DNA from: an uncultured Spirochaetota bacterium
GTDB lineage: Bacteria > Spirochaetota > Brevinematia > Brevinematales > JAOACQ01
Direction of reading: 5' to 3'
Length of the DNA: 64,000 bases
Assembly: GCA_963783575.1 (NCBI GenBank)
Contig: CAWAOD010000013.1
Span: 32,001-96,000 of the forward strand
This document shows, in pieces, positions 17,506-45,927 of the stretch. The notes beneath the pieces were generated by a model. It did no database searches. It was not told where the DNA came from and was given only the letters and a program-made list of their open reading frames with translations. The position numbers and the translations under genes are program-made. Every line of letters begins with the position of its first letter. Position 1 is the first letter of the stretch.

Positions 17506-17658
17506 TACCTGCCTGAAAATTATGATTATCCAGTCTTAGGCTTCTTGATTTCTTTTTCTTTCAGTCAATTATAAATTAATTTTCTAATAATAAAATATTG
17601 TTAATAAAGCAACTGGATTTTATTGGTTTAACACATATAAAATTTGGAGAGTGGTGAA

Positions 17659-27079: not shown

Positions 27080-27268
27080 TCGGTTTCAATTTATTGTAGC
27101 AAAACTGGTTTGACCGACTAACCGGCTTACCAGCTGAATTCTTGCATAAATTAAACCAGAATTCTAAAATGAAACAATGTCATAAAGAATACAATGTTGT
27201 CATTCTTCGTCCATTCGGCATCCCCGGCTGGAATGATTTTATTAATTGACCGGTTTAAGGAAGAAAAT

Positions 27269-29656
27269 ATGGATCAAAAAAAATTCCAGAATGAGAATAA
27301 ACTTCTGGGCATACTTTCACATCAGCTCAAATCACCGATAAATTCCATTGAAAGCATTCTGAAAGTTATAGTTGACGGATTTACCGGTGAAATCGATGAA
27401 AAAACCCTGTATTTCATTCAGAAGGCAATAAACAAGACCACTGATGCCAGAAATATTATCACAGATATGATAAATTATGAAAAATTATCAACAATGAATG
27501 AAATTATAATGGAAGAAATTGAAATAATAAATTTCATTCATTCGCTTTGCAGAAAATATTCTTTCCAGGCATCGGAAAAAAATATCCTGATCTCAACAGG
27601 CATACCTGAAAATATTAATATATATATTCAGGCTGAACCGGTAAGCCTCGGGATAGCTTTCGGCAACCTTATCGATAACGCCATCAAATATACGCCGAAC
27701 AATGGTAAAATAACAATTTCCATACATATTAACCAGGAAGCAAAAAAATGCCTGGTTATGATCTCCGACTCAGGCTATGGGATTAATCAGGAAGACATAC
27801 CAAAAATATTTGACCCTTTTTTCAGATCGCCCGGGCAAAAGTCGGCTATATCCGGAACCGGTTTGGGTTTGTCTATCGTTAAAAAGGTTATTGAAAAGCA
27901 TAATTTTGAGATAACAGTCGAATCAAGGGAAAATGCAGGGACATCATTTACGGTTACAATCCCCGGAATTAAAATCAAGCAGTATAAAAACCACAAAGCC
28001 AGGGACGGTAAAAAGATTGTCATAATCGGCGGAGTAACGGCAGGGCCTAAAGCTGCGGCAAGATTGAGGCGCCTGGACGAGAGCCTGGACATAACCATTA
28101 TTGAAAAAAGCGAATTTCTATCCTATGCCGGCTGCGGATTACCAGCCTTTATCAGCGGTAAAGTAAACTCGCCGAAGGAACTTATGTCGACATCAGATAA
28201 TACATTGAGGGACGTTAATTTTTTCGAATCGATAAAGAACATAAAGGTATTGAATCAGACAGAAGCGATTGAAATAAACAGGGAAAAGAAAACCGTCGGC
28301 ATTAAAGATTTAGTCAATCAGGTTAAGCATGAAGTCGATTACGATATTCTCATACTGGCTACAGGATCATCATGTTTATATCCTGATATACCGGGAATAA
28401 GGCAGGAAGGGATTTATTCCCTGCATAGCATTGAAGAAGCAAAAAAAATAAAAGAGGAACTGCATCAAAAGCGGGCGATGGATATCATAATAATCGGGGG
28501 CGGATTAATAGGCATTGAAGTTGCAGAATCCATTATGCTTACCGGGGCAAGGGTGACAATACTTGAAAAAAGCGATCAGATACTGAGAATTTTCGATAAG
28601 GAAATATCAAAAAAAATCGAACATGAACTCAACAAAAAGGGCATCAAGGTTTACTTAAGTACATTAATAAAAGAAATCCAAAAAACTGAAAAAAATTTTA
28701 TTATAAAAACTGAAGAAAATGATTTTGTCGCAGATATGATAATCCTTGCCTCGGGGGTCAAGCCGAACACGGCCCTAGCTGAAAAATCAGGTCTGGAGCT
28801 GGGACAGTTCGGCGGCCTGAAGATTAATGAGTATTTTCAGACATCCGATAAGAATATCTACGCAATCGGTGACTGCATAGAAAGCTGCAATGTTATATCC
28901 GGAAAACCTATTCTTTGGCCGCTCGGATCGGTATCGACAAAAATGGGAAGGATCGTTGCGGATAATATTTGCGGTAAAAAGGTTAAATTTAAGGGCCATG
29001 CCGCCACAGCGATGTTTAAGCTGTTTGATTTTAATATCGCAAGGACCGGCTTGAGTCTCCAGGATGCTGTGAACAGCGGCTATGATGTCGAATCCATTGT
29101 TGTCAGCGGGCTCGATTGTTCGCATTACTGCGGCGAGGCTCAGGAAATCACATTAAAGCTGCTTGTTGACAGAAAAACAGAAGCGATACTCGGCGCCCAG
29201 GGATATGGAAGGGGCAATATAGTTGAAAGAATTGAAATGCTTGCTTTTGCCGTGACACAGGGCTTGAAATTAAACGATGTTTACCAGGTTGACCTCGGTT
29301 ATTATCCATATTATAACAACCCGATAGATCTGATTCAAACGGCTTGCATAGCTCTTAAAAATAAAATAGACGGCCTGTACAGAACCATAACCTGTGAAAC
29401 GGTTGAAGCTGGCAGGAACGGCTATAAATTCATTGACGTTAGCCCGGCTTCGGAAAACCACATACTTTATATGTCGAACAGCATCAACATACCGCTTGAA
29501 AATATCCGCGAGGAAAAAATACCATATAAGTGTGAAGATCAGATCGTCCTATTCAGCAGAACATCAGCACGGGCTTATGAGGCTTACCGTTATCTTGTAT
29601 CAAAGGGATTTCAAAATATTTTCGTCCTCGAGGGCGGGTATTTGTTTTATAAATAA
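27269..29656 (+). CDS. Histidine kinase (HisKA-HATPase) fused to CoA-disulfide reductase-like FAD oxidoreductase and rhodanese-like domain
   Basis: SHQLKSP, NLIDNAIKY, DSGYGI, FDPF, GTGLGLSI; then IIGGVTAG, SYAGCGLP, GGGLIGIE, YAIGDC, DLGYYPYY; C-terminal SINIP...LEGG; start ATG 27269 (RBS AAGGAAG). Confidence 0.92.
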   Translation: MDQKKFQNENKLLGILSHQLKSPINSIESILKVIVDGFTGEIDEKTLYFIQKAINKTTDARNIITDMINYEKLSTMNEIIMEEIEIINFIHSLCRKYSFQASEKNILISTGIPENINIYIQAEPVSLGIAFGNLIDNAIKYTPNNGKITISIHINQEAKKCLVMISDSGYGINQEDIPKIFDPFFRSPGQKSAISGTGLGLSIVKKVIEKHNFEITVESRENAGTSFTVTIPGIKIKQYKNHKARDGKKIVIIGGVTAGPKAAARLRRLDESLDITIIEKSEFLSYAGCGLPAFISGKVNSPKELMSTSDNTLRDVNFFESIKNIKVLNQTEAIEINREKKTVGIKDLVNQVKHEVDYDILILATGSSCLYPDIPGIRQEGIYSLHSIEEAKKIKEELHQKRAMDIIIIGGGLIGIEVAESIMLTGARVTILEKSDQILRIFDKEISKKIEHELNKKGIKVYLSTLIKEIQKTEKNFIIKTEENDFVADMIILASGVKPNTALAEKSGLELGQFGGLKINEYFQTSDKNIYAIGDCIESCNVISGKPILWPLGSVSTKMGRIVADNICGKKVKFKGHAATAMFKLFDFNIARTGLSLQDAVNSGYDVESIVVSGLDCSHYCGEAQEITLKLLVDRKTEAILGAQGYGRGNIVERIEMLAFAVTQGLKLNDVYQVDLGYYPYYNNPIDLIQTACIALKNKIDGLYRTITCETVEAGRNGYKFIDVSPASENHILYMSNSINIPLENIREEKIPYKCEDQIVLFSRTSARAYEAYRYLVSKGFQNIFVLEGGYLFYK

Positions 29657-29771: not shown

Positions 29772-30401
29772 CTACTTACCGCTTTTCAGAAGAAGATTTG
29801 CCGCACTTGCAAGCCTTTGATTAAAATCCGGACTGAACATATGCCTTTTGGACATAGTTATCAAATACGAAGCCGAAGACTTAGAATTATGCTTTAATAT
29901 GGCAATAAAAAGAGTTTCTGCTATGGTTTCGTCTGTAATCTGGGTTGTTAAATTGTTCAAAGCCGTTAATCCTTCAGGCGATGGATGGATTTCTCCGAGT
30001 GCCTGTATCAGCGCTTTTTGACCTTCTTTATCGGTAATATCTTTTAAGTAACTGGCAATCTCTATCGCGTCCTGATTGTTGCCGATTTGCCCCATAGTCC
30101 ATACAGATATAAGAAAGATATCTTTCAGTTGATTTATCCTTTTTTTCCCCTGATTGGCGATCGGATTGGACTGCGCCATTAAGCCGAAGATTTCTTGCCT
30201 GGCGTTTGTAAGCTTTAATTCTCCGATTCTTTTGATTCCTCCGTAAACCATATCCAAATCATCGGATATAAAAGACTCCACTATCTGGTCATAATTTGAG
30301 GCATCCATTGACTTAAAATATTCATCATAGGTAGTTATTTTAGAATATGAAGCTGTAACGGCAAAAACCATTATTACCAGGACAGTTATCAAATATTTCA
30401 C
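29772..30401 (-). CDS. Exported HEAT-repeat-like protein
   Basis: Signal peptide; repeats RIGEL, WTMGQIG, QALGEI; GTG start with RBS AAGGAG. Confidence 0.6.
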   Translation of the reverse strand: MKYLITVLVIMVFAVTASYSKITTYDEYFKSMDASNYDQIVESFISDDLDMVYGGIKRIGELKLTNARQEIFGLMAQSNPIANQGKKRINQLKDIFLISVWTMGQIGNNQDAIEIASYLKDITDKEGQKALIQALGEIHPSPEGLTALNNLTTQITDETIAETLFIAILKHNSKSSASYLITMSKRHMFSPDFNQRLASAANLLLKSGK

Positions 30402-30451: not shown

Positions 30452-30832
30452 CTAATCGATTAAATTCTCAACCCTTTCTATAAATTGCTTGGGCTGAATG
30501 GGTTTGATAACATACTCATCCACTGGAAGCCAGTCCTCATCGCCCGCGGTCGATTTGAAATCTATATTGGTTTCATTATCCACATTCGTGAGCATAAGTA
30601 TTTTTATTTTTTCAAATTTTGCGTTATTTTTCAGTTCCCTAGCCATCTCGAACCCGGCGTTGCTGTTTTCCATCATTACATCCAGTATGACAAGATCGGG
30701 TATAAATTTTTCCAGTACCTGAAAACCTTCTTTCCTGGAACCGGCTTCTTTAATATCATATTTGCCGGAAAATATCACGGTCAATAACTCCCTCTGGTCC
30801 GGATCGTCATCTATGATTAATATTTTTTTCAT
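30452..30832 (-). CDS. Single-domain response regulator (receiver)
   Basis: ILIIDDD, PDLVILDVMM, MLT, YVIKP. Confidence 0.95.
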   Translation of the reverse strand: MKKILIIDDDPDQRELLTVIFSGKYDIKEAGSRKEGFQVLEKFIPDLVILDVMMENSNAGFEMARELKNNAKFEKIKILMLTNVDNETNIDFKSTAGDEDWLPVDEYVIKPIQPKQFIERVENLID

Positions 30833-31323: not shown

Positions 31324-33048
31324 ATGAAAGAAGCAATGACCATATGTTCGTTTTGCGGCTGCGGATGCAGCATGTATATGGCAAGCGAAGACAATTCCAT
31401 CACTAAAATCATTCCGGCATTGTCAAATCCTGTCAACCGCGGAAGCCTCTGCATAAAAGGCTGGCATATAAGCGAAGCCTATATCAATCAAAATAGAATT
31501 ACAAAGCCTCTGATCAAAACTAACGGAGAATTCAAAGAAGCGGGTTATGATGAAGCATTGAATCTGATTGCCGATAAATTCTCTTTTTATAAGAAATCTC
31601 AGAATTCAATCGGGGTAATCGGCTCCGCTAAAACTACAAACGAAGAGAATTATCTATTAAACCGCCTTGCCCGTCAGGCATTGGAAACAAACTCAATCGA
31701 CAGCTCTTTCACTCTGCACTATCACTCTCTTTTGGAAAATATCAACGGATTAAATCTAACCATCGGCATGGAAGATATCGAAAACGCGGATTTTATCATC
31801 GTTATCGGTTCGAACCTTCATACCGAAGCGCCTCAGGTTATAAAAAAAGTTTTGAAGGCTTCCGATAAAGGCGCGAAAATCGCGGTGATAGGTTTTCTTT
31901 CAGTTCCTCTTGCGGAAGTATCCGATTACTCGATCCCGATTAATCCGGCTGAGATATCTCAATTCCTGCAGAACTTTAAGGATATATTAAATTCCCCCGG
32001 GACGGATAAAGTTTCCGATGATATGATAACAGATATTGCATTGTCATATAAGAAATCGAAAAATCCCGTTGTTATAATCGGCGAAGATGTTTTTAAAAGT
32101 ACCCTTTCGAAACCGGGATTTAAAGTTTTATCTGAAATTTTTCAAGGAAGGATATTTCCGCTTTTTACAATAAACAATATTCTCGGCGCTGTATCTTATG
32201 GAATTTCACCTTATGCTGATAATAAATATTTAGCCGGGAAATGGAATGCAGAACTGCCGGCAGACAGGGGATTGAATATTTTCGAAATGCTTGATGCCTC
32301 CAATAACGGCAGTATGAAATGTATGTATATAGTCGGTGAGGATTTGCTCGCTGATGCCGGGGATTATAGCAGAGTAAAAAAGTCTCTTGAAAATCTTGAA
32401 TTCCTGGTCGTGCAGGATTTATTTATGACAGAAACCGCGAAATTGGCGGATGTCATTCTTCCCGCGGCCGGTTCTCTCGAGAAAAAAGGCACTTTTACAA
32501 ATATGGAAGGAAAACGCCAGCATTTTATGCCCGTTATCGACCCTATCGGCGAATCGAAACCGGATTCGGAAATTTTTATGGAATTATCGGGAAGGTTGGG
32601 AATTAAGCTTCCTTATGGCGATGTAAACGAAATAACCGAAGAAATTAAGGATATTGATTTATTTAAAAATAAAATTTTCATAACCGGAAATATATCCATT
32701 CCTGAGGAAAACACCGGTGATAGTTTTCCCCTGTGGATAAAAGCGGACAATACCCGTCTGAAGTATCATTCCGGAAGCCTGCTTAAAAACTCGTATTTCT
32801 TAGAGCGTGAAATGGAGCCTGCTGCCGTTCTGGTACATCCGGACCAGGCAAAGGCAAACCAGCTTAGAAATAACGAAAAAGTAAAAATTACTACAAAATA
32901 CGGGGAAATATTAAGAAATGTCCTGATATCAAACGATATCCCGAAAGGAAGCATCGTTTTAAGAACAAATATCAGCGATTATTCCCATACCATGGTATTA
33001 CCGGCAGGGTTATTATGGACGCCGGGTAGATTGGAGAAATTATCATGA
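31324..33048 (+). CDS. Formate dehydrogenase alpha-like molybdopterin-family protein lacking the Mo/W-ligand Cys/Sec
   Basis: CSFCGCGC...LCIKG 4Fe-4S motif, SAKTTNEENY, VVQDLFMTETA...ADVILPAA...EKKGTFTN; NSIDSSFTLHY where FdhF-type enzymes have NNxDxCARx(C/U)H. Confidence 0.85.
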   Translation: MKEAMTICSFCGCGCSMYMASEDNSITKIIPALSNPVNRGSLCIKGWHISEAYINQNRITKPLIKTNGEFKEAGYDEALNLIADKFSFYKKSQNSIGVIGSAKTTNEENYLLNRLARQALETNSIDSSFTLHYHSLLENINGLNLTIGMEDIENADFIIVIGSNLHTEAPQVIKKVLKASDKGAKIAVIGFLSVPLAEVSDYSIPINPAEISQFLQNFKDILNSPGTDKVSDDMITDIALSYKKSKNPVVIIGEDVFKSTLSKPGFKVLSEIFQGRIFPLFTINNILGAVSYGISPYADNKYLAGKWNAELPADRGLNIFEMLDASNNGSMKCMYIVGEDLLADAGDYSRVKKSLENLEFLVVQDLFMTETAKLADVILPAAGSLEKKGTFTNMEGKRQHFMPVIDPIGESKPDSEIFMELSGRLGIKLPYGDVNEITEEIKDIDLFKNKIFITGNISIPEENTGDSFPLWIKADNTRLKYHSGSLLKNSYFLEREMEPAAVLVHPDQAKANQLRNNEKVKITTKYGEILRNVLISNDIPKGSIVLRTNISDYSHTMVLPAGLLWTPGRLEKLS

Positions 33049-34091
33049 ATAAAATAAAACTTATTGATAAAGGCAAACTTTCCGCCTGGATTGAAGGCAT
33101 CATAAAAAAATACAGGGTTTTCGCTCCTCAGAAAATCGGCGAAAATGAATATATTTTTAAGGACCTGGTTTCACCTGATAAAATCTCGCTTGATTATATC
33201 AACCCGGTTATTTCACCCATAAAAGATCTGCTTTTCCCGATGAATGAAAAATTGATAGATTACAAAAAAAAGGAAAACGGATGGGAAACAAAGACCGAAG
33301 AAATCAAAGAGAAAACCGTGCTTTTCGGAATGCGTTCATGTGATCTGTCGGCTTTAATATTCATGGATAAATTCTTCCTTGAAGGGTTTAAGGATAATTA
33401 TTACGCGGCAAGAAGGGAAAATCTTTTTACTGTAAATGTAAGCTGTCTTAATCCCGCGGAATACTGCTTCTGCGTCTGCGCGGATGCCGGACCATCTAAG
33501 GACGATGGTTTTGATGTTCAGCTAACCGATATCGGCGGTAAATACCTGGTCGAAATAGGTTCCGGAAAGGGCGAGGAACTTGTAAATATTGATTCTTCTT
33601 TATTTACAGAGGCATCCCCCGATGATCTTAAGAAAAAGCATGATTTGATTCTTGAAATAAGGAACAATAAATTCAAACTACCGACCACATATTTTTCCAA
33701 AGCGATCCGGCATGTAACAGCCGATGATATAAGCGAAAAGGAATGGAATAAGCTCGGGGCAAGGTGCATCGCCTGCGGAAGCTGTTCATACATCTGCCCG
33801 ACCTGTACCTGTTTTAATGTTATCGACATTGAGAAAAAACCCGGAGAGGGTTCGAGATACAGGACCTGGGATTCATGCATGTACGGCGGTTTTACCAGGG
33901 AAGTGTCGGGGCATAATCCCCGTCCGACTCAGAAGGAAAGGGTGAAAAGACGCTATTACCATAAGCTTAGCTATTATTACCTGAGGAAAATGGGAACACA
34001 TGGATGCGTGGGCTGCGGCAGGTGCGTTATATCCTGCCTGGGCAGCATTGATATGTTCGATGTCAGTAAAGATATCAGAAGGAACGGATAA
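33045..34091 (+). CDS. 4Fe-4S dicluster protein, AsrA / sulfhydrogenase beta / FlxB-like
   Basis: GMRSCD, CFCVC, CIACGSCSYICPTCTCF, RTWDSC, GCVGCGRCVISC. Confidence 0.9.
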   Translation: MNKIKLIDKGKLSAWIEGIIKKYRVFAPQKIGENEYIFKDLVSPDKISLDYINPVISPIKDLLFPMNEKLIDYKKKENGWETKTEEIKEKTVLFGMRSCDLSALIFMDKFFLEGFKDNYYAARRENLFTVNVSCLNPAEYCFCVCADAGPSKDDGFDVQLTDIGGKYLVEIGSGKGEELVNIDSSLFTEASPDDLKKKHDLILEIRNNKFKLPTTYFSKAIRHVTADDISEKEWNKLGARCIACGSCSYICPTCTCFNVIDIEKKPGEGSRYRTWDSCMYGGFTREVSGHNPRPTQKERVKRRYYHKLSYYYLRKMGTHGCVGCGRCVISCLGSIDMFDVSKDIRRNG

Positions 34092-34919
34092 ATGGAAAAC
34101 ATATATTTATCGCAGGAAGCTGTAATCAGGGATATAAAACAGGAAACTTTCGACACAAAGACTTTTTTCCTTTCGTTCAGGGATAAAAATATTCAGAAAA
34201 ATTTTGAATACAAGCCGGGGCAGTTTATTGAAGCTTCCCTGTATGGATATGGTGAAGCTCCTTTCGGAATGGCCACATCCCCGACACGCAAAGATTATTT
34301 TATAACGACGATACGCTCGGTCGGTAAACTGACACAGGCCATCCATTCACTTAAAATCGGGGATACTATCGGCGTGAGGGGACCGTTTGGGAACAGTTTC
34401 CCATTTGAGGAAGTAAAAGGGAAAAATATTTTATTCATCGGGGGCGGCATCGGCCTTCCGCCTTTAAGGTCTCTCATACATTATATGATGGACAAACGTT
34501 CCGATTATAAAGATATTACGATACTCTACGGAGCAAGAACACCTAAAGACCTTGTTTATAAGGAAGAATTAAAGGAATGGGAAAACAGCAAAGATATTAG
34601 TTTTTATGTTACAGTAGATGCAGCCGATGGCGAATGGAAAGGAAACGTCGGAGTTGTTCCGCTTCTATTGAACAAAATAAAGCTTGATATTCCAAACACT
34701 GTGGCTTTTGTGTGCGGACCTCCTATTATGATAAAATTTGTTATCCAGGATCTTCTGAAATTGAATTTCGCCGAGGAAAATATTATTACAACCCTGGAAA
34801 GATATATGAAATGCGGAGTCGGTAAGTGCGGGCATTGCGCCATCGGATACAAATATGTCTGCATGGATGGGCCGGTTTTTAATTATAAACAGATAAAAAA
34901 CCTGCCGGAAAAGGCATAA
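34092..34919 (+). CDS. FAD/NAD(P)-binding 2Fe-2S subunit, AsrB / sulfhydrogenase gamma / FlxA-like
   Basis: KPGQF, GEAP, RGPFGN, GGGIGLPPLRS, CGPPIM, MKCGVGKCGHC...CMDGPVF. Confidence 0.92.
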   Translation: MENIYLSQEAVIRDIKQETFDTKTFFLSFRDKNIQKNFEYKPGQFIEASLYGYGEAPFGMATSPTRKDYFITTIRSVGKLTQAIHSLKIGDTIGVRGPFGNSFPFEEVKGKNILFIGGGIGLPPLRSLIHYMMDKRSDYKDITILYGARTPKDLVYKEELKEWENSKDISFYVTVDAADGEWKGNVGVVPLLLNKIKLDIPNTVAFVCGPPIMIKFVIQDLLKLNFAEENIITTLERYMKCGVGKCGHCAIGYKYVCMDGPVFNYKQIKNLPEKA

Positions 34920-34944
34920 TGATTATAAAATCAGGGATAAAAAA

Positions 34945-36966
34945 ATGATTGAATATTTAATTTACGCTGTAATCGCCGGGTTTATTCTTACCTGCTTTAC
35001 CGTAAGATTCAGGAAGCTTTGCGGGTATATAGCATTCTTTACCATATTATTAATAAGTATCGGCGTGTTCTATATTGTTTATCAGGTCTTCAGCACATCG
35101 TCGCCTGTAAAGATCGACGAACCTCTTATGATACTTCCGGTTATAGGGGCGCAGCTTGTTTTTAACATCGATAAAATGGGGGCTTTATTCCTATCGCTGA
35201 TCGCCGTAATCTCGCTGCTTGCTTCGCTTTATTCAATTGATTATATGGACAGCTACAAAGAAGAAAGCCTTTTAAGGTTCTATCCTTTTTTGATACTTTT
35301 TGTTCTCAGCATGATAGGGGTGGTTATTGTTTCCGACCTGTTTTTCTTTTTCGTATTCTGGGAGTTTATGACATTATCGTCATATTTTCTTGTTATTTTT
35401 GAAAAAAAAGACCCGGTAGTACTAAAAGCCGGGTTTAAATACTTTTTGATGACCCACATTGGAACAGCTTTAATGTTTATTGCAGCTTTCGTTCTTCAGT
35501 CCTATGCCGGTACATTCAGATTTGACGGCATTGAACAGGCCATTGGTTCAATGGCTGTAAAAGCCACATTCGGCCTGCATATTGTCCTGGCTTTGTTCTT
35601 TATCGGGTTTGCGACAAAATCGGGCGTTTACCCATTCGGAACATGGCTGCCGGATGCCCATCCCGCGGCTCCTTCCGGAATCTCCGCGATGCTGTCGGGA
35701 GTTATGATAAAAATGGGGATTTTCGGGATACTCCGCATTTTCTTGTATATACTCCCTGTTTCTGACTTTTCAGTGCTCTGGGGGATTATCATCGCTGTCT
35801 TTGGGACATTGTCAATTTTGATCGGCACATTTAACGCCCTTGTCCAGAAGGATTCTAAAAGACTGCTGGCTTTCCACAGCATCGGCCAGATCGGGTATGT
35901 TCTTCTGGCTGTCGGAATTGGTATAAGCTTTATGAAGGATAACCCGGCCATCGCAACGATAGCATTAATCGCAGGTTTATTCCATATGATAAACCATGCC
36001 TTCTTCAAGAGCCTTTTGTTTTTAAACGCCGGATCGATATTATTCAAAACCGGGATAAAAAACCTGAACAATCTTGGCGGATTATGGAACATCATTCCAC
36101 TTACGGCTGTGACAGCGCTTGTTGCCTCTCTTTCCATTTCAGGAATACCGCCGTTTAACGGATTTGTCAGCAAATGGCTTATCTATCAGGTATCCATCCT
36201 CGGGGGAATCAAGGTTCCTTTATTCGTATCATGCGGAGTCGTGGCGATTTTTTTATCGGCTATAACTATGGCTTCATTTATTAAGTTTTTCTCCACTTCA
36301 TTTCTCGGGGATTTACCATGTGACATTAAAGATCATATAACCGCAAAAAGAATGCCCGCGGGAATGAATATTTCACAAATAATCCTTGCGCTTATCTGCC
36401 TGGGGTTGGGTCTTGCGCCGTTGTTCCCGGTAAAACTTATTTATGACTCACTAGCCGGGTCAAAACTTGCCGATACTTTACCGCAATTCGGTTCAATATT
36501 CAACGGCAGCGCCGGCGGGATCGGGATCCTTATAGACGGTAAAGAAACCGGGGTATGGAAGCCTCTGGTAATAGTACTAATATTCCTGGGGCTGGTTCTT
36601 TTATCTTACTTAATTTCAAAACTTGGCGGCTCAAAAAAAAGGGTCGTACCGGTCTGGCTATGCGGAGAGGAATACGACAGGGAGCAGGTTCGGTACAGGG
36701 CTCATAGTTTTTATTTATCGCTGCAGCATCTTATTGAGGGGTGGTTTTTCCCCAAGATTTTGATACCGGGTAAAGAAAAACCGGAGCGAGTTTATAATTC
36801 AATGAATTTCGATAATATCGCGTTTTATCCTTTAGCCAGGTGGATAGTAAACCTCGCAGATAAAATAAAAAAGAGCCACAGCGGAATACCGCAAATCTAT
36901 ATGCTGTGGCAGGTTCTGGGTGTAATTATTGCGGTAACCCTTATAATCCTCGCTGGAGGTAAATAG
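34945..36966 (+). CDS. hyfB: Group 4 hydrogenase antiporter-like membrane subunit (HyfB/HycC)
   Basis: FWEFMTLSSY, WLPDAHPAAPS, KRLLAFHSI, NHAFFKSLLFL, PPFNGFVSKW. Confidence 0.85.
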   Translation: MIEYLIYAVIAGFILTCFTVRFRKLCGYIAFFTILLISIGVFYIVYQVFSTSSPVKIDEPLMILPVIGAQLVFNIDKMGALFLSLIAVISLLASLYSIDYMDSYKEESLLRFYPFLILFVLSMIGVVIVSDLFFFFVFWEFMTLSSYFLVIFEKKDPVVLKAGFKYFLMTHIGTALMFIAAFVLQSYAGTFRFDGIEQAIGSMAVKATFGLHIVLALFFIGFATKSGVYPFGTWLPDAHPAAPSGISAMLSGVMIKMGIFGILRIFLYILPVSDFSVLWGIIIAVFGTLSILIGTFNALVQKDSKRLLAFHSIGQIGYVLLAVGIGISFMKDNPAIATIALIAGLFHMINHAFFKSLLFLNAGSILFKTGIKNLNNLGGLWNIIPLTAVTALVASLSISGIPPFNGFVSKWLIYQVSILGGIKVPLFVSCGVVAIFLSAITMASFIKFFSTSFLGDLPCDIKDHITAKRMPAGMNISQIILALICLGLGLAPLFPVKLIYDSLAGSKLADTLPQFGSIFNGSAGGIGILIDGKETGVWKPLVIVLIFLGLVLLSYLISKLGGSKKRVVPVWLCGEEYDREQVRYRAHSFYLSLQHLIEGWFFPKILIPGKEKPERVYNSMNFDNIAFYPLARWIVNLADKIKKSHSGIPQIYMLWQVLGVIIAVTLIILAGGK

Positions 36967-36967
36967 T

Positions 36968-38659
36968 ATGAATGGAAATGAATTGATATCAAAATTAAAA
37001 AGCAAATTTAATGACAGCATAGTCAATGCGGTTGAAAAAACGCCTTCAAGGGTTTTTATTACTGTTCCAAAGAATAAAATCAAAGAAATTACAGGATATA
37101 TTTCAAAGGATATGAAAGCCCGGTTTCAGGTCAGCGTAGGGACCGACAGCAGGAATAAAAACGGGAATTTTCAGATTACGCATATTTTTTCACTGGATAA
37201 AGAAAAGCTTTACATTATTGTTCATGCCCTGGTTCATCCCGATGACCCGAATATAGACTCAATAGCGAATGATATTCCGGCGGCAAACTGGACCGAAAGG
37301 GAATTCAGGGATATGATCGGCGTCAACCCGGTTGGGCATCCTGACCCCAGAAGGCTTGTACTGGCTGATGATTGGCCGGATGATGTTTATCCTTTAAGGA
37401 AGGACTTCCCATACGACTGTAAAGTACCATCGGTGTCGCCCGGTTCTCCGGGACCGAGAATCGTAATGAAAGCGCCGCCCGAAGGGGCTTCGGTAATACC
37501 GATAGGCCCGTTTTACCCGGTGCTTGAGGAGCCTTCGCAGTGGAGAATTTTTGTCGAGGGTGAATCAATTGTCGGCTGCGATTACAGGGGATTTTACGTC
37601 CACAGGGGAATTGAAAAACTTGGAGACAGCGTACTGACATACAACCAGATTCCGTTTATCGCTGAAAGAATCTGCGGGATTTGCGGTTTCGTTCATTCCA
37701 GCTGCTACTGCCAGGCTGTTGAGAACGCGGCGGGAATTGAAATTCCGGAAAGATCGAAGTTTATAAGAAGCATTCTTCTTGAACTGGAAAGAATCCACAG
37801 CCATCTGTTGTGGCTCGGGATCGCCGGGCATATCATCGGCTTCGATACCGTTCTTATGCAAAGCTGGAGGATAAGGGAGCCTGTGATGTGGCTGACCGAA
37901 AGAATCACCGGGCATAGAAAAACTTATGGCATGAACCTCATCGGAGGTGTAAGGAGAGACATAACAAAAGAAATGTGCCAGGATATAACAAATGTTATAA
38001 ATAAAGTTGAAAAAGAATGGACTGCAGTGATTAACGCGATCGGAGGCGATACCCCGCTGTTTATGAGGCTCAGGAATGTCGGTGTGCTCAGCCATGAAAA
38101 CGCGCTTAAAACCTCTGTTCTGGGGCCGACGGCGAGAGGTTCCGGAGTGGATATAGACGCAAGGACGGATCACCCGTTCGCGGCTTATGAATATATCCCG
38201 GTCAACAGGATTGTTCATAATGAAGGCGATATAATGTCAAGGACTATGGTCAGGCTTGAAGAAACACTCGAATCAATAAGGATCATTAAAGAATGCATGA
38301 AGCTGATGCCGGAAGGCCCGATCATGGCGAAAGTTCCGGACACGATACCGGACGGACTTGAAGGCGTAAGCGTTGTCGAACCGCCCAGGGGCGAAGTGAT
38401 TCACTATATAATGACCGGGGGTGACAACCGTCCTTACAGGTGGCGTGTCAGGGCCCCTACATATTTTAACCTTCAGGCTGTTCCTATAATGATAGAAAAT
38501 GTTACAATCGCCGATGTCCCGATCACCCTTGGAAGCATTGACCCATGCTTTTCCTGCACCGAAAGGATGGAGGTCGTGGACGTTAAGAAAGGCGACATTA
38601 AAGTATATTCGCAGGATGACTTACTGGCGTTGTCAAGGAAGAAGTATGGTGATAAATGA
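36968..38659 (+). CDS. hycE: Group 4 [NiFe]-hydrogenase large subunit (NuoC+D-like, HycE/HyfG)
   Basis: GHPDPRRLVL, HRGIEK, L1 ERICGICGFVH, L2 DPCFSCTER followed by a C-terminal extension. Confidence 0.93.
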   Translation: MNGNELISKLKSKFNDSIVNAVEKTPSRVFITVPKNKIKEITGYISKDMKARFQVSVGTDSRNKNGNFQITHIFSLDKEKLYIIVHALVHPDDPNIDSIANDIPAANWTEREFRDMIGVNPVGHPDPRRLVLADDWPDDVYPLRKDFPYDCKVPSVSPGSPGPRIVMKAPPEGASVIPIGPFYPVLEEPSQWRIFVEGESIVGCDYRGFYVHRGIEKLGDSVLTYNQIPFIAERICGICGFVHSSCYCQAVENAAGIEIPERSKFIRSILLELERIHSHLLWLGIAGHIIGFDTVLMQSWRIREPVMWLTERITGHRKTYGMNLIGGVRRDITKEMCQDITNVINKVEKEWTAVINAIGGDTPLFMRLRNVGVLSHENALKTSVLGPTARGSGVDIDARTDHPFAAYEYIPVNRIVHNEGDIMSRTMVRLEETLESIRIIKECMKLMPEGPIMAKVPDTIPDGLEGVSVVEPPRGEVIHYIMTGGDNRPYRWRVRAPTYFNLQAVPIMIENVTIADVPITLGSIDPCFSCTERMEVVDVKKGDIKVYSQDDLLALSRKKYGDK

Positions 38660-38670
38660 CAATTATGGGT

Positions 38671-38741
38671 CGAGCATCCTGCCTGGCCTGCCTACAACGG
38701 GATATCCGGCAGGTAGGCGGCAGACAGGTCATGCTTGCTCG
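38671..38741. repeat. GC-rich nested palindrome (REP-like) in the hycE-hyfC spacer
   Basis: GAGCAT-CCTGCCTG-GCCTGCCT...AGGTAGGC-GG-CAGACAGG-TC-ATGCTT. Confidence 0.55.
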
Positions 38742-38753
38742 GGAGGAAAGTAA

Positions 38754-39653
38754 ATGGTTTGGTTAGCAATTATAAATGTTTTGCTTGTAATACTGCTTTC
38801 GCCGCTTTATGAAGGCATTATAAGAAAAGTGAAGGCTTTTGTCCATTCGAGAAAAGGCCCGCCGGTTTACCAACCTTACATTGACCTGTTAAAGCTTTTA
38901 GGTAAAGAGGATCTGCGGGTATCAGGCAATATCCTGATCGGCCTGGCTCCTGTGGTGTGTTTCGCAAGCGTGTTGATGGTTGCAATGCTGACTCCAATCG
39001 GAACAATAGTTTCTCCGCTGGGATTCGGCGGGGATGCCATTGTTATGATATATTTTATAGCTTTATCAGCTTTCGCTATTATGATCGGCGCGGCGGCAAC
39101 TGAAAACCCGTACGCCTTTGTCGGCTTAAACAGAAAGATGATGCTGTATCTTGTACTTGAAATTATAGTTGTAATAGCGATTCTCGCGGGAGTCATCAAA
39201 AGCGGTTCTTTCCAGATCTCGGATATTGTCAGGAGAGTTTTAAAAAACGGCATGTCTGTCTCGACCGTGCTTGCCGCGGCGGCGTTTTTCCTTGTAATCC
39301 AGGCTCAGCTCGCGAAACTGCCTTTTGATGTATCCGAAGCCGAGCAGGAATTGATGGAAGGTCCTTTTATAGAGGCTTCCGGCCCAAGGCTCGCCCTTTT
39401 TAAATGGAGCTTTTACGCGAAACAGATAATATATTCATCGCTGTTTCTGGAAATGTTCATCCCATGGCCGAAGACATACATTATACCGTTGGATATACTG
39501 ATAAACCTGGCTAAAGTATTGGCCGTGATGCTTCTGATAGGGGTCATTGACGTTGTAAATCCGAGGCTTCGTATAGACCAGGCTATAAAGTATTATACAG
39601 GAGTATCGATAGTAGCTTTGATCGGGCTTTCATTCGCGGTGATAGGAGCGTAA
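38754..39653 (+). CDS. hyfC: NuoH-like membrane subunit (HyfC/HycD)
   Basis: RKVKA...RKGPPVYQPYIDLLKLLGK, LPFDVSEAEQELMEGPFIE. Confidence 0.9.
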   Translation: MVWLAIINVLLVILLSPLYEGIIRKVKAFVHSRKGPPVYQPYIDLLKLLGKEDLRVSGNILIGLAPVVCFASVLMVAMLTPIGTIVSPLGFGGDAIVMIYFIALSAFAIMIGAAATENPYAFVGLNRKMMLYLVLEIIVVIAILAGVIKSGSFQISDIVRRVLKNGMSVSTVLAAAAFFLVIQAQLAKLPFDVSEAEQELMEGPFIEASGPRLALFKWSFYAKQIIYSSLFLEMFIPWPKTYIIPLDILINLAKVLAVMLLIGVIDVVNPRLRIDQAIKYYTGVSIVALIGLSFAVIGA

Positions 39654-39809
39654 ATTAGCGGCTAGATATTAGTCGCTATTCGTTAGCTATCTGATATAGT
39701 CAGTTTCTGTTTTTATTTATGTATAGTAGCGGAAAGCCAAATTGATTTGTAATCCTTCGTTCGGATAAGGATTATATAATGGTCAAGCGGCACGCTTGAG
39801 GAAAAGTTT

Positions 39810-40250
39810 ATGTTTTTAAGCAAGATTAAAGAAGCGATAATATGCTTCAAAGCCGGAAGGGTCACAATGCCCTACCCATTGGGCGCGGAAGGAAACCCTC
39901 CGAAGGAATGGTTCAGGGGAAGGGTCCATCTTGATCCAACTAAATGTATCGGCTGCGGCGGCTGTGCAAATGTTTGCCCACCGGGTTTGATAAAAATAAT
40001 CGATGTCGACGGCAAAAGGTTTATTGAAAGGGATCTTTTCCGCTGTATTTACTGCGGCAGGTGCGTTGAGGAATGCCCGGAAAAGGCCATCACAATGTCT
40101 GAGGATTATGAACTCGCAACCGATCATAAAGAAGATCTCTTAATCCGGCAGGAGATAGATATGGCGACCTGCCAGAGGTGCGGAAGATGTTTTGACCGGA
40201 ATTTAAAGAATCCGCTGGATAAAATGATGATAAAAGGCTTTAGAAGCTGA
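39810..40250 (+). CDS. hycF: NuoI-like 2x[4Fe-4S] subunit (HycF/HyfH)
   Basis: TMPYP, FRG, CIGCGGCANVCP, CIYCGRCVEECP, extra CQRCG. Confidence 0.88.
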   Translation: MFLSKIKEAIICFKAGRVTMPYPLGAEGNPPKEWFRGRVHLDPTKCIGCGGCANVCPPGLIKIIDVDGKRFIERDLFRCIYCGRCVEECPEKAITMSEDYELATDHKEDLLIRQEIDMATCQRCGRCFDRNLKNPLDKMMIKGFRS

Positions 40251-40265
40251 TCCCGGAGGTTAAAG

Positions 40266-40931
40266 ATGGAACTTTCATATATAGTATCGCTGTTCTGCCT
40301 GTCTATGTTCATAACAACAATAGCGGTAATAGAAATAAGGAATTTAAAATACGCGGTTTACGCATATTGCCTGCAGGCAATTATTATGGCTGTTCTGTAT
40401 TTCTATCTTGCTTCTCATATAAATCCAAGATTTTTCGTCTGGTTTATTGAGGTTGTGGTTGTAAAAATTGTACTTATACCGATGTTTTTTTTGATATATA
40501 TAAGAAGAACTACCCAAATAGCTTTCAGACCTTTTATTGGCTATATCCCCTCGGTATTTCTGATGGCTTTTATAATAATAATCATGTTCTATATGATATA
40601 TACTAACATCAATTTTATAGCCCCAAGTGCCGAAGCCGTTCAGGACCCCGGAAGAACGCTTCTTTCCGTATCATTGACTGTTTTCACATTGGGATTGTAC
40701 GGGATTTTGACAAGACGCGACGCTATAAAAATGGTCTTAAGCCTCTGCGTGGTGGATAACGGCGTGCATTTATTCCTGGTAAGCACCGCCCTGTCAATGC
40801 CTGAAATAGCCGTCATCGGTATAACAACGGACGCGGTTATAGCCGTTTTACTGCTGCTTTACCTGGTAAGAGGAATATTCAATGAATTCGGGTCTGCCGA
40901 TACCAATGAACTGAAGAATCTAAGGTGGTAA
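40266..40931 (+). CDS. hyfE: HyfE-like membrane subunit
   Basis: YCLQA, KIVLIP, TRRDAIK...DNGVHL; ~7 TM segments. Confidence 0.8.
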   Translation: MELSYIVSLFCLSMFITTIAVIEIRNLKYAVYAYCLQAIIMAVLYFYLASHINPRFFVWFIEVVVVKIVLIPMFFLIYIRRTTQIAFRPFIGYIPSVFLMAFIIIIMFYMIYTNINFIAPSAEAVQDPGRTLLSVSLTVFTLGLYGILTRRDAIKMVLSLCVVDNGVHLFLVSTALSMPEIAVIGITTDAVIAVLLLLYLVRGIFNEFGSADTNELKNLRW

Positions 40932-40933
40932 TT

Positions 40934-42475
40934 ATGCCTGAAGTTAATACTTTCTATTGTATTATATTATTTATAGTGCCTGCCGCAACGGCATTACTCA
41001 TTCTTATTCTTGGAAGATTCCGGATATTCAGGGAATGGCTGGCTTTAGCGGGTATGACTGCCACTTTTATAATTAGCGTATATATATTCCTTAATTCTCA
41101 AAGAACCATACAAAGCTATTTCAATAATAATCTCAGGATAGATGCTTTCAGCGGATTGATTATTGCTCTGATCAGTTTGATCGGACTGGCCGTTTTAGTT
41201 TATTCAGTAAAATATTTAAAAACCGAAAAAGAAAAAGGTATATTCAAGGAAAAAAAGCTGAAATCATTCTACTGGCAGTTTATGCTTCTCATAAGCGTTA
41301 TGCTGCTGCTTGCGACATCAAACAATATCGTTCTTTTATGGGTGGTGATAGAAGCGACTACCCTTGCCGCGACGATTCTCGTTTCATTCTACTGGAACAA
41401 AAACTCCCTTGAGGCGGGTTTTAAATTTGTTATGATTCTGACTGTCGGAATGTCAATAGCGCTTATCGGCTGTATTTTATTATATTCGGGAGTGGCCCAT
41501 AATGTTAAAGCCGGCGAAGACCCCCTGCAGATTACAACCATAATATCAGTCGTAAAATCTGGCATAATCCCGAAAAGCATATTGAGCCTGTCAGCGGCTT
41601 TTTTACTGGTTGGTTTCGGCACAAAAGCAGGGATCGCACCTTTTCATACCTGGATGCCCGATGCTTATGCCGAATCGCCGGTACCTGTCAGTTCCATTTT
41701 ATCCGGTGTTGTTGTTAATATGAGTATTTATGCCCTTATCAGGATTTTTTCGATATTTTATTCGGCTGTACCGGTTTTAAATATTTTTGTGATTGTTCTT
41801 GGGCTGTTCTCAATGCTTCTCGGTGTTTTAATGATGTTTGTCCAGGATGATATCAAAAGATTTCTGGCGTATTCTTCGGTCAGCCAGATCGGTTATATCA
41901 TATTAGGATTCGGTCTCGCAGGGTCACAGGCCCCGGCTATTGGAACAATGGTCAATAATGGGGCTTATCTCGGGATGTACGGCGCTATCTTTCATATTAT
42001 CAACCATGCCCTAATAAAGACGCTTTTATTTTTGAGCGCGGGCGCGGTAATTTACGCAACAGGAATACGCAGGATGAGCGAACTCGGAGGCCTTGGGAAA
42101 AAAATGCCAATAACCGCCGTCTGCTTTTTTATAGCAGGGTTATCCATTTCGGGGATTCCATTTTTGAACGGCTTTGCAAGTAAATTTATAATCTTCATGG
42201 CGGGAGCAAAAATTGATGGAATGATATGGACGACAGTCATAGCAATAATCTGCAGTATATTGACGCTTGCGAATATTATTATAATTCTTCATAAGATATT
42301 TATGGGAAATGTTTCAGAGAATTTAAATAATTATGAAGTAAAAGAAGTTCCTGCGTCACTATGGACAGTAATGGTTTTTTTATGTATGTTATGCATTTTA
42401 TTGGGTGTTTATCCTCAAATTATGAATCCGTTTCTGGATAAAGCCGCAAGTGTTATTTTATCGGTAATATATTGA
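40934..42475 (+). CDS. hyfF: HyfF-like antiporter membrane subunit
   Basis: WVVIEATTL, SLEAGFKF, GFGTKAGIAPFHTWMPDAY, KRFLAYSS; ORF open from 40925. Confidence 0.85.
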   Translation: MPEVNTFYCIILFIVPAATALLILILGRFRIFREWLALAGMTATFIISVYIFLNSQRTIQSYFNNNLRIDAFSGLIIALISLIGLAVLVYSVKYLKTEKEKGIFKEKKLKSFYWQFMLLISVMLLLATSNNIVLLWVVIEATTLAATILVSFYWNKNSLEAGFKFVMILTVGMSIALIGCILLYSGVAHNVKAGEDPLQITTIISVVKSGIIPKSILSLSAAFLLVGFGTKAGIAPFHTWMPDAYAESPVPVSSILSGVVVNMSIYALIRIFSIFYSAVPVLNIFVIVLGLFSMLLGVLMMFVQDDIKRFLAYSSVSQIGYIILGFGLAGSQAPAIGTMVNNGAYLGMYGAIFHIINHALIKTLLFLSAGAVIYATGIRRMSELGGLGKKMPITAVCFFIAGLSISGIPFLNGFASKFIIFMAGAKIDGMIWTTVIAIICSILTLANIIIILHKIFMGNVSENLNNYEVKEVPASLWTVMVFLCMLCILLGVYPQIMNPFLDKAASVILSVIY

Positions 42476-42487
42476 GAGAGGAAATTG

Positions 42488-42973
42488 ATGTTTAAAAAAC
42501 TTTCGCATAAAGCATTCCCGAAATCGCTCTGGGTTTACCATGTCAACACCGGGGCATGCAACGGATGCGACATTGAAGTTATCGATACGCTGACGCCTTA
42601 CTATGACGCCGAAAGATTCGGAATCAAACTGGTGAGTTCTCCCAGGCATGCAGATGTCCTGCTTATTTCAGGCCCGATTACAAGGCAGATTTTACCGGCA
42701 TTTAAAAGGCTTTACGACGCTGTTCCATCCCCCAAGCTTGTTTTTGCCATAGGCGCTTGCGCTGCCGGGGGCGGGATCTGGAAGAATTCTTACAATGTTG
42801 TAGGCGGCGTGGATAATATAATAAAAGTAGATTATTACATCCCCGGATGTCCGCCCAGGCCGGAAGCAATTCTGCATGGAGTTGCCGTAGCACTCGGCCT
42901 TGTCCCAAAATCGGTAAAATCAGAAGAATATAAAGAAAAATCCCTTGATGAAATGTTCCCTCCGGAAGAATAA
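42488..42973 (+). CDS. hycG: Group 4 hydrogenase small subunit (NuoB-like, HycG/HyfI)
   Basis: GACNGCDIE, SPRHAD, GACA, IPGCPPRP. Confidence 0.92.
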   Translation: MFKKLSHKAFPKSLWVYHVNTGACNGCDIEVIDTLTPYYDAERFGIKLVSSPRHADVLLISGPITRQILPAFKRLYDAVPSPKLVFAIGACAAGGGIWKNSYNVVGGVDNIIKVDYYIPGCPPRPEAILHGVAVALGLVPKSVKSEEYKEKSLDEMFPPEE

Positions 42974-43553: not shown

Positions 43554-44612
43554 TTGAATATCAGGAGTCAGAATCTGGATAGAACTGAAATCATCGATTT
43601 ATATAAAAACGGAAAATTCCCGGAATTAATCAGTCTTGCAAATAAGACATACCTGGAAAATTATGGAAATAAAGTATGGATCAGGGGTTTGATTGAATTT
43701 TCCAATTTTTGTAATATGAACTGCACTTATTGTGGTATCCGCATGGACAACCGCAAAATTAACCGTTACAGGCTCGAAGAAACGGAAATAATAAATATCG
43801 TACGGCAGGGTATGGAAGCCGGATTTAAAACATTCGTCCTTCAGAGCGGAGAGGACAATTTTTATACTATTAAAGTGCTATGCCGCCTTATTGAAAAAAT
43901 AAGGGATATTGCGTCCGGATCGATAGCAATTACACTAAGCTGCGGGTTGAAGACAAAATCTCAGTTTAAAGAACTGAAAAAAGCGGGCTGCAACCGTTAT
44001 CTGATGAGGTTTGAAACATCAGATGAAGCGCTTTTTTCGGGATTGAAAAACGGATTGTCGCTGAAAGACCGGTTAAAAGGACTTTATTATCTTAAAGAAC
44101 TGGGATTTGAGACAGGTTCCGGCTATATGGTAGGATTGCCAGGGGAAACCGGGGAAACCAGGATCAATAACGCTTTATTATGCGCCGATCTTGAGCTGGA
44201 TATGATCGGCATAGGGCCGTTCATTCCGCATCCGTATACGCCCCTGTATGATTCAGCAGTTCCTTGTATTGATGAGACTGTAAGGTCAACAGCGCTTTTA
44301 AGACTGCTTCTGCCAAAATCAAATATACCGGCGACAACTGCCGCCGGCAGCATCCATCCATCAGGAAGGGAAAAGATGCTTGAAGCGGGCGCGAACGTGC
44401 TTATGCCGAATATAACACCTGCGGAACACAAAAAGGACTATACCCTCTATCCGGGGAAAATTTGTATTGAAGAATCGGGGCTTCAATGCCTGGAATGCCT
44501 GGAAATAAGGGTTAGGAGCATCAATAAAACTATAGATATGGGGCGCGGTGATTCGAAAAACAAGGGGACTGATATTGGAAGAAAAGATTTATTATGGAGA
44601 GGAAACCGCTAA
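43554..44612 (+). CDS. hydE: [FeFe]-hydrogenase maturase, radical SAM
   Basis: RGLIEFSNFCNMNCTYCG, TFVLQSGED, GIGPFIPHP.TP, PATTA, GANVLMPN, YTLYPGK. Confidence 0.92.
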   Translation: MNIRSQNLDRTEIIDLYKNGKFPELISLANKTYLENYGNKVWIRGLIEFSNFCNMNCTYCGIRMDNRKINRYRLEETEIINIVRQGMEAGFKTFVLQSGEDNFYTIKVLCRLIEKIRDIASGSIAITLSCGLKTKSQFKELKKAGCNRYLMRFETSDEALFSGLKNGLSLKDRLKGLYYLKELGFETGSGYMVGLPGETGETRINNALLCADLELDMIGIGPFIPHPYTPLYDSAVPCIDETVRSTALLRLLLPKSNIPATTAAGSIHPSGREKMLEAGANVLMPNITPAEHKKDYTLYPGKICIEESGLQCLECLEIRVRSINKTIDMGRGDSKNKGTDIGRKDLLWRGNR

Positions 44613-45924: not shown

Positions 45925-45927
45925 AAA

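Follow-up and report, generated by a model that had tools for sequence, protein, structure and literature searches.

A histidine-kinase-like core fused to a CoADR-RHD/Npsr-type flavoenzyme: a candidate redox-gated sensor in an uncultured Spirochaetota bacterium

Can a complete NADH-dependent flavoenzyme become the input domain of a two-component sensor? The question is raised by a gene in a 64,000-nt stretch of DNA from an uncultured Spirochaetota bacterium (assembly GCA_963783575.1, contig CAWAOD010000013.1, positions 32,001 to 96,000; the whole stretch is called the window in the following), in which a histidine kinase core is directly followed by a flavoprotein of the CoADR-RHD/Npsr type. 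A first-pass annotation had suggested that the enzyme serves as a C-terminal redox sensor of the kinase. We consider it probable that the flavoenzyme acts as an input module, with either a phosphatase or a kinase output; this estimate pools the phosphatase-biased and the autokinase reading, since both share the same wiring. Among individual readings we favour, at a little short of an even chance, a soluble, redox-gated and phosphatase-biased two-component sensor that would use a repurposed CoADR-RHD/Npsr flavoenzyme as its C-terminal input. The gene and its parts are the following.

27269..29656, + strand: fusion gene, HisKA-HATPase_c + CoADR/Npsr-type flavoprotein + rhodanese-like domain (795 aa, label P0001)
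27296..27487, + strand: DHp (HisKA) domain, aa 10-73 (Pfam 23 bits, under the 26.9 cut-off)
27641..27964, + strand: CA (HATPase_c) domain, aa 125-232 (Pfam E 2e-28)
27965..28009, + strand: linker between CA domain and flavoprotein, aa 233-247
28013..28900, + strand: FAD- and NADH-binding domains (Pyr_redox_2), aa 249-544 (Pfam E 3e-64)
29015..29317, + strand: dimerisation domain (Pyr_redox_dim), aa 583-683 (Pfam E 4e-12)
29417..29641, + strand: rhodanese-like domain, aa 717-791 (Pfam E 2e-8)

The frame is open from the ATG at 27269 to the TAA at 29656, with AAGGAAG just 5' of the start; an alternative ATG at 27194 would give a protein longer by 25 residues. The earlier statement that a single frame leads from a kinase core into a full CoADR-rhodanese module is borne out by Pfam domains and AlphaFold2/Foldseek alike, and the motifs it quoted are all in place, i.e., GGVTAG at residues 254-259, SYAGCGLP at 285-292, GGGLIGIE at 410-417, YYPY at 678-681, and LFSRTSAR at 761-768. 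In the AlphaFold2 model (120-row alignment), the mean predicted local distance difference test score (pLDDT) is 88, with values below 50 only at residues 1-6 and 240-244; the HisKA helical hairpin is present even though the Pfam HisKA score is below its cut-off. With only 17 residues ahead of His18, the protein lacks the space for an N-terminal sensor or membrane segment, in agreement with the first-pass annotation. No N-terminal sensor is found in the best 120 matches among proteins of 603-2000 aa (lengths 651-822 aa), nor among the close relatives of the window's fusion (clade A), where 12-42 residues lie ahead of the His and one partial record has none.

Is the fusion genuine? An assembly or annotation artefact joining two genes might be suspected from several frame-split genes in the assembly (aspA-like, both ackA copies) and from the GC content, which differs between the halves of the gene (0.35 vs. 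0.41). It is already refuted for the family by homologues, such that we regard it as next to impossible. Each of the 119 listed homologues (query excluded) is a full-length fusion (753-822 aa, 47-55% identity, query coverage 94-100%), and they come from independent assemblies. A scan of GTDB contigs gave no match with a single-protein query and 80 loci with an alignment query, namely 42 fusions and 38 stand-alone CoADR-RHD genes, a few of which begin at a contig end where the fusion state is unsure. Kinase and flavoprotein sequence share one open reading frame (ORF) in 80/80 metagenome loci, some of them cut by contig ends or frameshifts, and the ESM Atlas holds a 92-member cluster with the kinase-flavoprotein fusion architecture. 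That is, the architecture is real and conserved across phyla and results neither from chance nor from misassembly, because full-length fusion homologues recur in independent assemblies.

Titles of the fusion records cover at least seven phyla (Spirochaetota, Fibrobacterota, Planctomycetota, Verrucomicrobiota, Lentisphaerota, Chloroflexota, Myxococcota), and database labels read only 'FAD-dependent oxidoreductase' or 'histidine kinase family protein'. Besides clade A, we distinguish clade B (mostly fusions from phyla of the Planctomycetes-Verrucomicrobia-Chlamydiae (PVC) group) and clade C (fusions found by a junction search among 301 genomes of the window's phylum). This search detected the junction region in 22/301 genomes, i.e., in 16/17 of one family and 0/11 of the window's own family; the fusion is also absent from all 40 nearest relatives. 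In line with the earlier remark that no characterised protein of this architecture is known, we found no description of a kinase-CoADR-RHD fusion in the open-access literature, a corpus that leaves most subscription papers and supplements outside its coverage.

With regard to origin, FastTree places the fused kinases on one side with one unfused kinase inside or, in the other tree, mixed with 12 unfused ones. In an IQ-TREE analysis of 54 chosen rows (trait columns removed, long-branch P0127 left out), all 26 fused kinases fall on one side (SH-like approximate likelihood ratio test 82, unstarred). The trees thus allow a single origin of the fused kinases but do not establish it. In the flavoprotein tree, a long stem (0.56, support 1.0) leads to clade A, and stand-alone enzymes are interspersed among clade B. 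Five close short matches that might be taken for stand-alone copies of the kinase half (P0270-P0274) were rejected: they look like fragments because their contigs measure 1-2.8 kb and two run into the flavoprotein start.

We now turn to the flavoenzyme half. The closest solved protein by sequence is A. fulgidus Npsr (AfNpsr, 6PFZ; E 1e-111, 36% identity), which is also the best Foldseek match of the AlphaFold2 model (root-mean-square deviation 1.9 Å over 549 columns), and the order of FAD, NAD(P)H, dimerisation and rhodanese domains is that of CoADR-RHD. The basic residues K261, R265, R268, R314 and R747, which we take to bind CoA, are conserved. Clade A retains the FAD motifs as well as the redox cysteine beside the flavin (Cys289, codon 28133-28135, equal to C42/C43 of known enzymes; 117/120). 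Glu433, invariant in 120/120, corresponds to E183 of AfNpsr, which is reported to select NADH (PMC7969121), i.e., the pocket is of the NADH type. Mean identity per flavoprotein domain is 0.52-0.63 in clade A vs. 0.53-0.61 in stand-alone enzymes, i.e., the constraint is equal.

Other residues are lost. The catalytic rhodanese Cys (C508/C519/C531 in known enzymes) is replaced by Ser763 (codon 29555-29557) in 120/120 clade A proteins, as the first-pass annotation had noticed for the query, and is present in 35/35 aligned stand-alone loci; the clade A loop reads S-K/R-T-S-S-R/G-A with strong conservation. The YAPP motif of the dimerisation domain, already noted to read YYPY in the query, has become Y-x-P-x-F/Y-N-x-P (Y678 118/120, P680 120/120, second Pro 9/120). 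The PLxxxAN(K/R)QG motif reads PLGSVSTKMGR in the query (AN556-557ST); Asn557 is Thr in 115/120 clade A members and is kept in 0/120 vs. 37/37 stand-alone enzymes. The consensus of both motifs was checked on stand-alone homologues. Further clade A changes are A257T and the frequent loss of Glu417 (kept in 71/120). Among dereplicated proteins of the whole family, the rhodanese Cys is lost in 71/116 fused vs. 3/119 stand-alone proteins (12 changes on the tree), and Glu417 is replaced in 36/119 vs. 1/120. The query misses both equivalog thresholds (TIGR03385 387 vs. 578.8; NF007123 354 vs. 458 bits). Leu413 in GGGLIG, aromatic in solved enzymes, was rejected as a fusion-specific change, given that 32/38 of the nearest stand-alone enzymes share it.

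The loss of the rhodanese Cys throughout clade A argues against a persulfide relay. Both Cys are reported to be required for turnover in E. faecalis CoAPR (PMC9405070), such that polysulfide sensing by the usual route, one of the signals first proposed, is not upheld. The same source describes that the CoAPR helix following the rhodanese Cys helps to bind the phospho-ADP of CoA (PMC9405070); by analogy, this helix may be why the Cys-less rhodanese domain is still conserved.

Are the two halves coupled at all? They might merely be joined, i.e., the flavoprotein would be an NADH oxidase/peroxidase or a disulfide reductase with a protective or servicing role for hydrogenases nearby, and the core a constitutive phosphatase, a pseudokinase or a receiver scaffold. 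The equal constraint on the flavoprotein, the interleaving of clade B modules with stand-alone enzymes (9 fusion-state changes), the NADH oxidase activity of AfNpsr, and a linker that is variable in sequence and low in pLDDT would all suit such an arrangement. The length of this linker is nearly fixed, however (21 residues from P232 to G254 in 107/120 clade A proteins, range 19-23), and catalytic residues (rhodanese Cys, Glu417) are lost mainly in fused proteins. Moreover, the window's genome already encodes a canonical stand-alone CoADR-RHD with all motifs intact (C11:182158-183786), and the kinase core has no other input domain. We thus rate uncoupled halves as improbable.

The kinase half is closest to VicK/WalK/HK853 cores (E 1.5e-29 to S. 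mutans VicK 4I5S). A canonical HisKA H-box reads H-E/D-x-x-T/N-P. The fusion protein instead has H-Q-L-K-S-P, i.e., Gln19 takes the place of the acidic residue that marks a HisKA autokinase at the position after His18 (H+1; His18 codon 27320-27322), and Ser22 is at H+4, the position at which phosphatase activity calls for Thr/Asn (or Glu/Gln). The core had been called intact, which is correct for His18 and the N, G1, F and G2 boxes and incorrect for the H-box. Gln at H+1 is found in 111/120 clade A proteins, in 58/58 of clade B with aligned H-box, and in 18/18 further loci, and Glu/Asp in 104/113 of the nearest unfused kinases. H+4 in clade A is Ser (99/120), Ala (13/120) or Thr (5/120). Clade B deviates further: the first N-box Asn is lost in 53/58, and a Glu occupies the fourth residue before it in 54/58, where unfused kinases mostly have Gln and the query Ile129. 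Helix 2 often carries a Glu in clades A and B, at a site that is most often Arg in unfused kinases. The clade B N-box changes may reflect a loss of kinase activity or a relocated base.

The consequences of the H+1 exchange are known from other proteins. The E372Q variant of CrdS is reported to abolish kinase activity and to keep phosphatase activity, and the same source names three other HisKA proteins that need the acidic H+1 residue (PMC3510030); the requirement is also described in PMC8292422, and PMC7005713 again names this residue as the general base. The fusion's core is not canonical: by analogy with CrdS, where the change kills the kinase and spares the phosphatase, its Gln at H+1 casts doubt on kinase activity, and a phosphatase output is no less likely. 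The control of autophosphorylation proposed at first does therefore not stand as worded. Signal-gated phosphatases with a kinase fold have precedents. DrBphP, with His at H+1 and without its first N-box Asn, is described as a light-gated, ATP-dependent phosphatase (PMC8292422), and the sensor phosphatase BumS is reported to work with acetyl phosphate and carbamoyl phosphate as phosphate source (PMC12469816, PMC11796366).

Two genes on the opposite strand follow the fusion gene:

30452..30832, - strand: lone receiver domain (126 aa), candidate cognate partner, convergent with the fusion gene and 796 bp away
29772..30401, - strand: 209-aa ORF between fusion and receiver, with no Pfam or NCBIfam family and a hydrophobic N-terminus

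The genome contains no second receiver of this subfamily. The closest relatives of the window's copy are neighbours of fusions that rank among the closest relatives of the window's kinase. For the neighbourhood comparison, loci were dereplicated at 85%, and 3 stand-alone loci with <800 bp upstream were dropped. A lone receiver of this one subfamily is found within 2.1 kb in 27/101 fusion loci (12/31 in clade A, 15/70 in clade B) vs. 0/32 stand-alone loci (Fisher p 3e-4, with kin that are not independent; 21/60 vs. 0/22 when both flanks measure at least 1.5 kb). All 25 adjacent receivers retain the phospho-acceptor Asp, Thr/Ser and Lys. The 25 closest fusion-receiver pairs show four gene arrangements, and kinase and receiver distances correlate (Mantel r 0.58, 0/5000 permutations), to which shared ancestry contributes. 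We infer from this that the lone receiver is the likely partner of the fusion. Thus, the proposal of a C-terminal redox sensor gains from the conserved fusion, the constraint on the flavoenzyme, the travelling receiver and the separate canonical CoADR-RHD, and is not supported as worded with regard to the control of autophosphorylation and the usual polysulfide route.

Two side observations concern this receiver subfamily. A conserved block divergent from the fusion gene (L017:713-2938, L023:4706-6247, L099:1065-3252) combines a 150-aa protein that belongs to no known family with a membrane kinase whose H-box reads H-E-L-R-G-P; in L017 and L099, a receiver comes next. In L215:2622-3455 (+ strand), a hydrogenase maturation protease is apparently fused to a receiver of the fusion-associated subfamily.

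With the same wiring, the core could also be a working autokinase whose autophosphorylation and phosphotransfer to the lone receiver depend on the state of flavin, Cys289 and CoA; it would then manage without the H+1 acid or use another carboxylate in its stead. In favour of this, the phospho-acceptor His18 and all of the N, G1, F and G2 boxes are conserved, the receiver is usually present without any other kinase (23/25 loci), and either the clade B Glu at N-4 or the helix 2 Glu could act as relocated base. Near-universal Gln at H+1, the change that abolished the kinase in CrdS, speaks against it, as does the query itself, which has neither an H+1 acid nor the clade B Glu (Ile129). We consider a working autokinase possible, on the doubtful side.

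Information might also flow the other way. Domains located C-terminal to a kinase core are usually outputs, and the flavoenzyme would then be an NADH-dependent reductase switched by the phosphorylation or nucleotide state of the core, with receiver phosphate passing back to His18; an impaired H+1 base need not prevent the His from accepting it. A canonical membrane kinase is indeed nearby in L017, L023, L099 and L019, together with the subfamily receiver in L017, L099 and L019. An upstream kinase is rare at fusion loci, however, and in clade A the loss of the rhodanese Cys and the remodelling of the CoA channel (A257T, AN556-557ST, YAPP) fit a lost turnover better than a regulated one. Such a reversal is, in our view, quite improbable.

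The favoured phosphatase-biased sensor could operate as follows. FAD, NADH and probably CoA would bind as in Npsr, as expected from sequence and fold. NADH would reduce the FAD and the Cys289 centre, and the redox state of the module would follow the reductant load, because persulfide turnover should be poor without rhodanese Cys and with a remodelled CoA channel. For the signal itself, the NADH/NAD+ ratio has about an even chance; CoA-sulfur species are a doubtful candidate and O2/peroxide acting at Cys289 is an unlikely one. A redox-linked change in the flavoenzyme dimer would pass via the short linker of fixed length to the CA and DHp domains; redox-linked subunit asymmetry is reported for dimers of pyridine nucleotide-disulfide oxidoreductases (PMC6026696). 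Given its H-Q box, the core would mainly remove phosphate from the lone receiver, or phosphorylate it very weakly; the receiver might obtain its phosphate from acetyl phosphate or another kinase. Acetate kinase genes are present in the window's genome, with both ackA copies split over two frames.

Several results weigh against this phosphatase-biased sensor. In clade A, His18 is conserved in 118/120, which fits a working kinase, N133, N137, D167, G169, G171, F184, R186 and the G2 glycines are invariant (120/120), and the first N-box Asn, which is compatible with a working kinase, is retained in 120/120. An H-E box occurs in 8/120 clade A proteins and an H-Q box in 8/113 unfused kinases, and Ser at H+4 (Ala in 13/120) differs from the Thr/Asn tested in PMC3510030. 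No lone receiver lies within 8 kb in 72/101 fusion loci, in part due to short contigs. A canonical kinase is present in just 11/101 fusion loci and 2/25 loci with receiver, such that no obvious phosphate donor is nearby. The rhodanese Cys is retained in 45/116 fused proteins, and catalysis may therefore persist in much of the family. A tree-aware (independent-pairs) test of residue loss vs. fusion shows nothing, being underpowered with just 2 supported pairs. The association with hydrogenase genes within 8 kb (17/101 fusion loci of clades A and B vs. 1/32 stand-alone) is not significant (p 0.07), and the clade C regions discussed below stem from few related families.

What would the receiver act on? 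The candidate process is encoded next to it:

31324..42973, + strand: operon divergent from the receiver, with an Fdh-alpha-like molybdopterin protein first; candidate regulated process
43554..47145, + strand: HydE, a split aspartate-ammonia-lyase-like gene, and HydF ([FeFe] hydrogenase maturation); context

The operon also encodes a sulfhydrogenase beta/gamma (AsrAB-like) pair and membrane-bound group-4-type [NiFe] hydrogenase subunits, and an NADH-linked [FeFe] hydrogenase lies about 44 kb beyond the hydE-hydF region. In clade C, 13/14 regions are hydrogenase- or nickel-linked, i.e., the fusion gene ends an Mbh-type hydrogenase operon (7), follows nikR (5) or is part of a hydrogenase cluster (1); these regions were chosen for their longer contigs from 26 matches outside G000, and one further picked region belongs to clade A. 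The operon partners of the stand-alone enzyme are rare near fusions (P-loop 4Fe-4S ATPase 2/101 vs. 14/32, thioredoxin 0/101 vs. 9/32). The rex gene is found near 6/101 fusion loci vs. 0/32 (not significant) and is present in the window's genome. Since the receiver has no DNA-binding domain, it might act by protein contact on the hydrogenase/energy-conserving machinery or on its nickel-dependent maturation; suggested by gene context, this is the weakest step of the mechanism.

Taken to its full extent, the scheme would be that a whole NADH/CoA flavoenzyme came, apparently once, to serve as C-terminal input to a redox-gated sensor phosphatase in anaerobes of many phyla, which reads NADH/NAD+ by flavin-cysteine chemistry and tunes hydrogenase activity or nickel-dependent maturation after translation via an acetyl-phosphate-charged receiver, the repeated loss of the rhodanese Cys being the step from enzyme to sensor. 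As a whole, this chain is speculative and unlikely to hold in every link.

How does the fusion relate to known systems? With Npsr/CoADR-RHD/CoAPR (6PFZ, S. loihica 3NTA, E. faecalis 8A56, B. anthracis 3ICR) it shares the four-domain fold, the redox Cys by the FAD and the NADH-selecting Glu, and with AfNpsr also the long loop over the CoA pocket (aa 307-315, AfNpsr 60-66). It differs from them in its position behind a kinase core, in Ser for the rhodanese Cys, in STKMG for AN(K/R)QG and in the altered YAPP, and from CoADR-RHD in particular by a score below the TIGR03385 cut-off and a different gene neighbourhood. The WalK/VicK/PhoR group of HisKA kinases (VicK 4I5S, T. maritima HK853) has the same DHp and CA domains with His, N, G1, F and G2 boxes, but the fusion has no N-terminal sensor, PAS, HAMP or membrane segment, an H-Q-x-x-S box, and a 550-residue C-terminal enzyme. 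Judged by its residues, it is thus neither a member of CoADR-RHD/Npsr (rhodanese Cys, motifs, TIGR03385) nor a canonical HisKA autokinase (H+1 acid).

Like DrBphP of D. radiodurans and BumS of C. jejuni, both described as signal-gated phosphatases, the fusion has a kinase fold without residues needed for autophosphorylation. It resembles DrBphP in its non-acidic H+1 and differs at H+4 (Ser, Glu in DrBphP). The input of DrBphP is an N-terminal photosensory module and that of BumS an N-terminal PAS domain, whereas the fusion's candidate input is C-terminal. The use of a redox enzyme as two-component input around H2 metabolism would be shared with the putative sensory kinases of group C1 [FeFe]-hydrogenases and with kinase-linked group 2b [NiFe] hydrogenases, as reported in PMC5037454. 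One fusion locus, L164, even has an [FeFe]-hydrogenase-HisKA-HATPase protein 5 kb away. Such sensory hydrogenases use a metallocluster, located N-terminally or on a separate protein, with a canonical H-E in L164, in contrast to the C-terminal flavin/Cys module of the fusion. Rex, which would read the same NADH/NAD+ signal, is a one-component DNA-binding repressor with neither flavin chemistry nor phosphoryl transfer.

Apart from Rex and putative sensory hydrogenases, little is known about how fermentative and syntrophic anaerobes couple reductant load to their hydrogenases, and the fusion and its candidate receiver form a soluble two-protein system that is amenable to in vitro tests. If our reading is correct, a kinase-family sensor would have a whole enzyme as its C-terminal input, and a natural family would rest on an exchange in the H-box that is known to silence kinases. 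The family would also range in steps from members with an intact enzyme (many of clade B) to the remodelled sensors of clade A, its signalling role being hidden by generic database labels.

Some observations remain apart from this argument. In L164, the [FeFe]-hydrogenase-like domain fused to HisKA-HATPase (973-2982, - strand) resembles a group C1 sensory kinase and has its own receiver; the fusion gene, rex, a Hox-type operon and the genes of an NADH-dependent [FeFe] hydrogenase belong to the same cluster. A pair similar to the window's sulfhydrogenase beta/gamma genes accompanies Mbh-type operons in L050, L112, L206, L207, L209 and L211; this points to membrane hydrogenases that are NAD(P)-linked. 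G047, G085 and G096 each hold two paralogous fusion genes (L205-L206, L208-L209, L211-L212), of which one is the last gene of an Mbh-type operon and the other lies behind nikR. Other CoADR-RHD fusions are seen among P0220, P0225, P0179, P0250 and P0265, namely with an N-terminal hemerythrin or C_GCAxxG_C_C domain or with a C-terminal sulfite-reductase 4Fe-4S module or TusA.

Scans for promoters and terminators gave counts near chance (24 vs. 16.7 +/- 4.6; 5 vs. 3.6), and a Rex-box pattern had 12 three-mismatch matches vs. 6.0 expected, none clearly placed. A 15-nt inverted repeat with 28-nt spacer (27070-27127), found once in the genome, overlaps the stop codon of a U32 peptidase gene 5' of the fusion gene and is a possible terminator; within the peptidase gene, three tandem 18-nt copies (26677-26730) encode a repeated six-residue unit. 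Genes split over frames, i.e., the aspartate-ammonia-lyase-like gene in three ORFs (44548-45924), a carbamoyltransferase-like gene in two (21576-23397) and both ackA copies (G000:C13:162325-163495 and C4:108090-110199), suggest indel errors in the assembly. Finally, judged by eye, the window holds a tandem pair of HD-GYP-like genes as well as two chemoreceptor-like proteins whose N-terminal regions are multi-pass (16312-18849; 48484-50166; 54477-56180).

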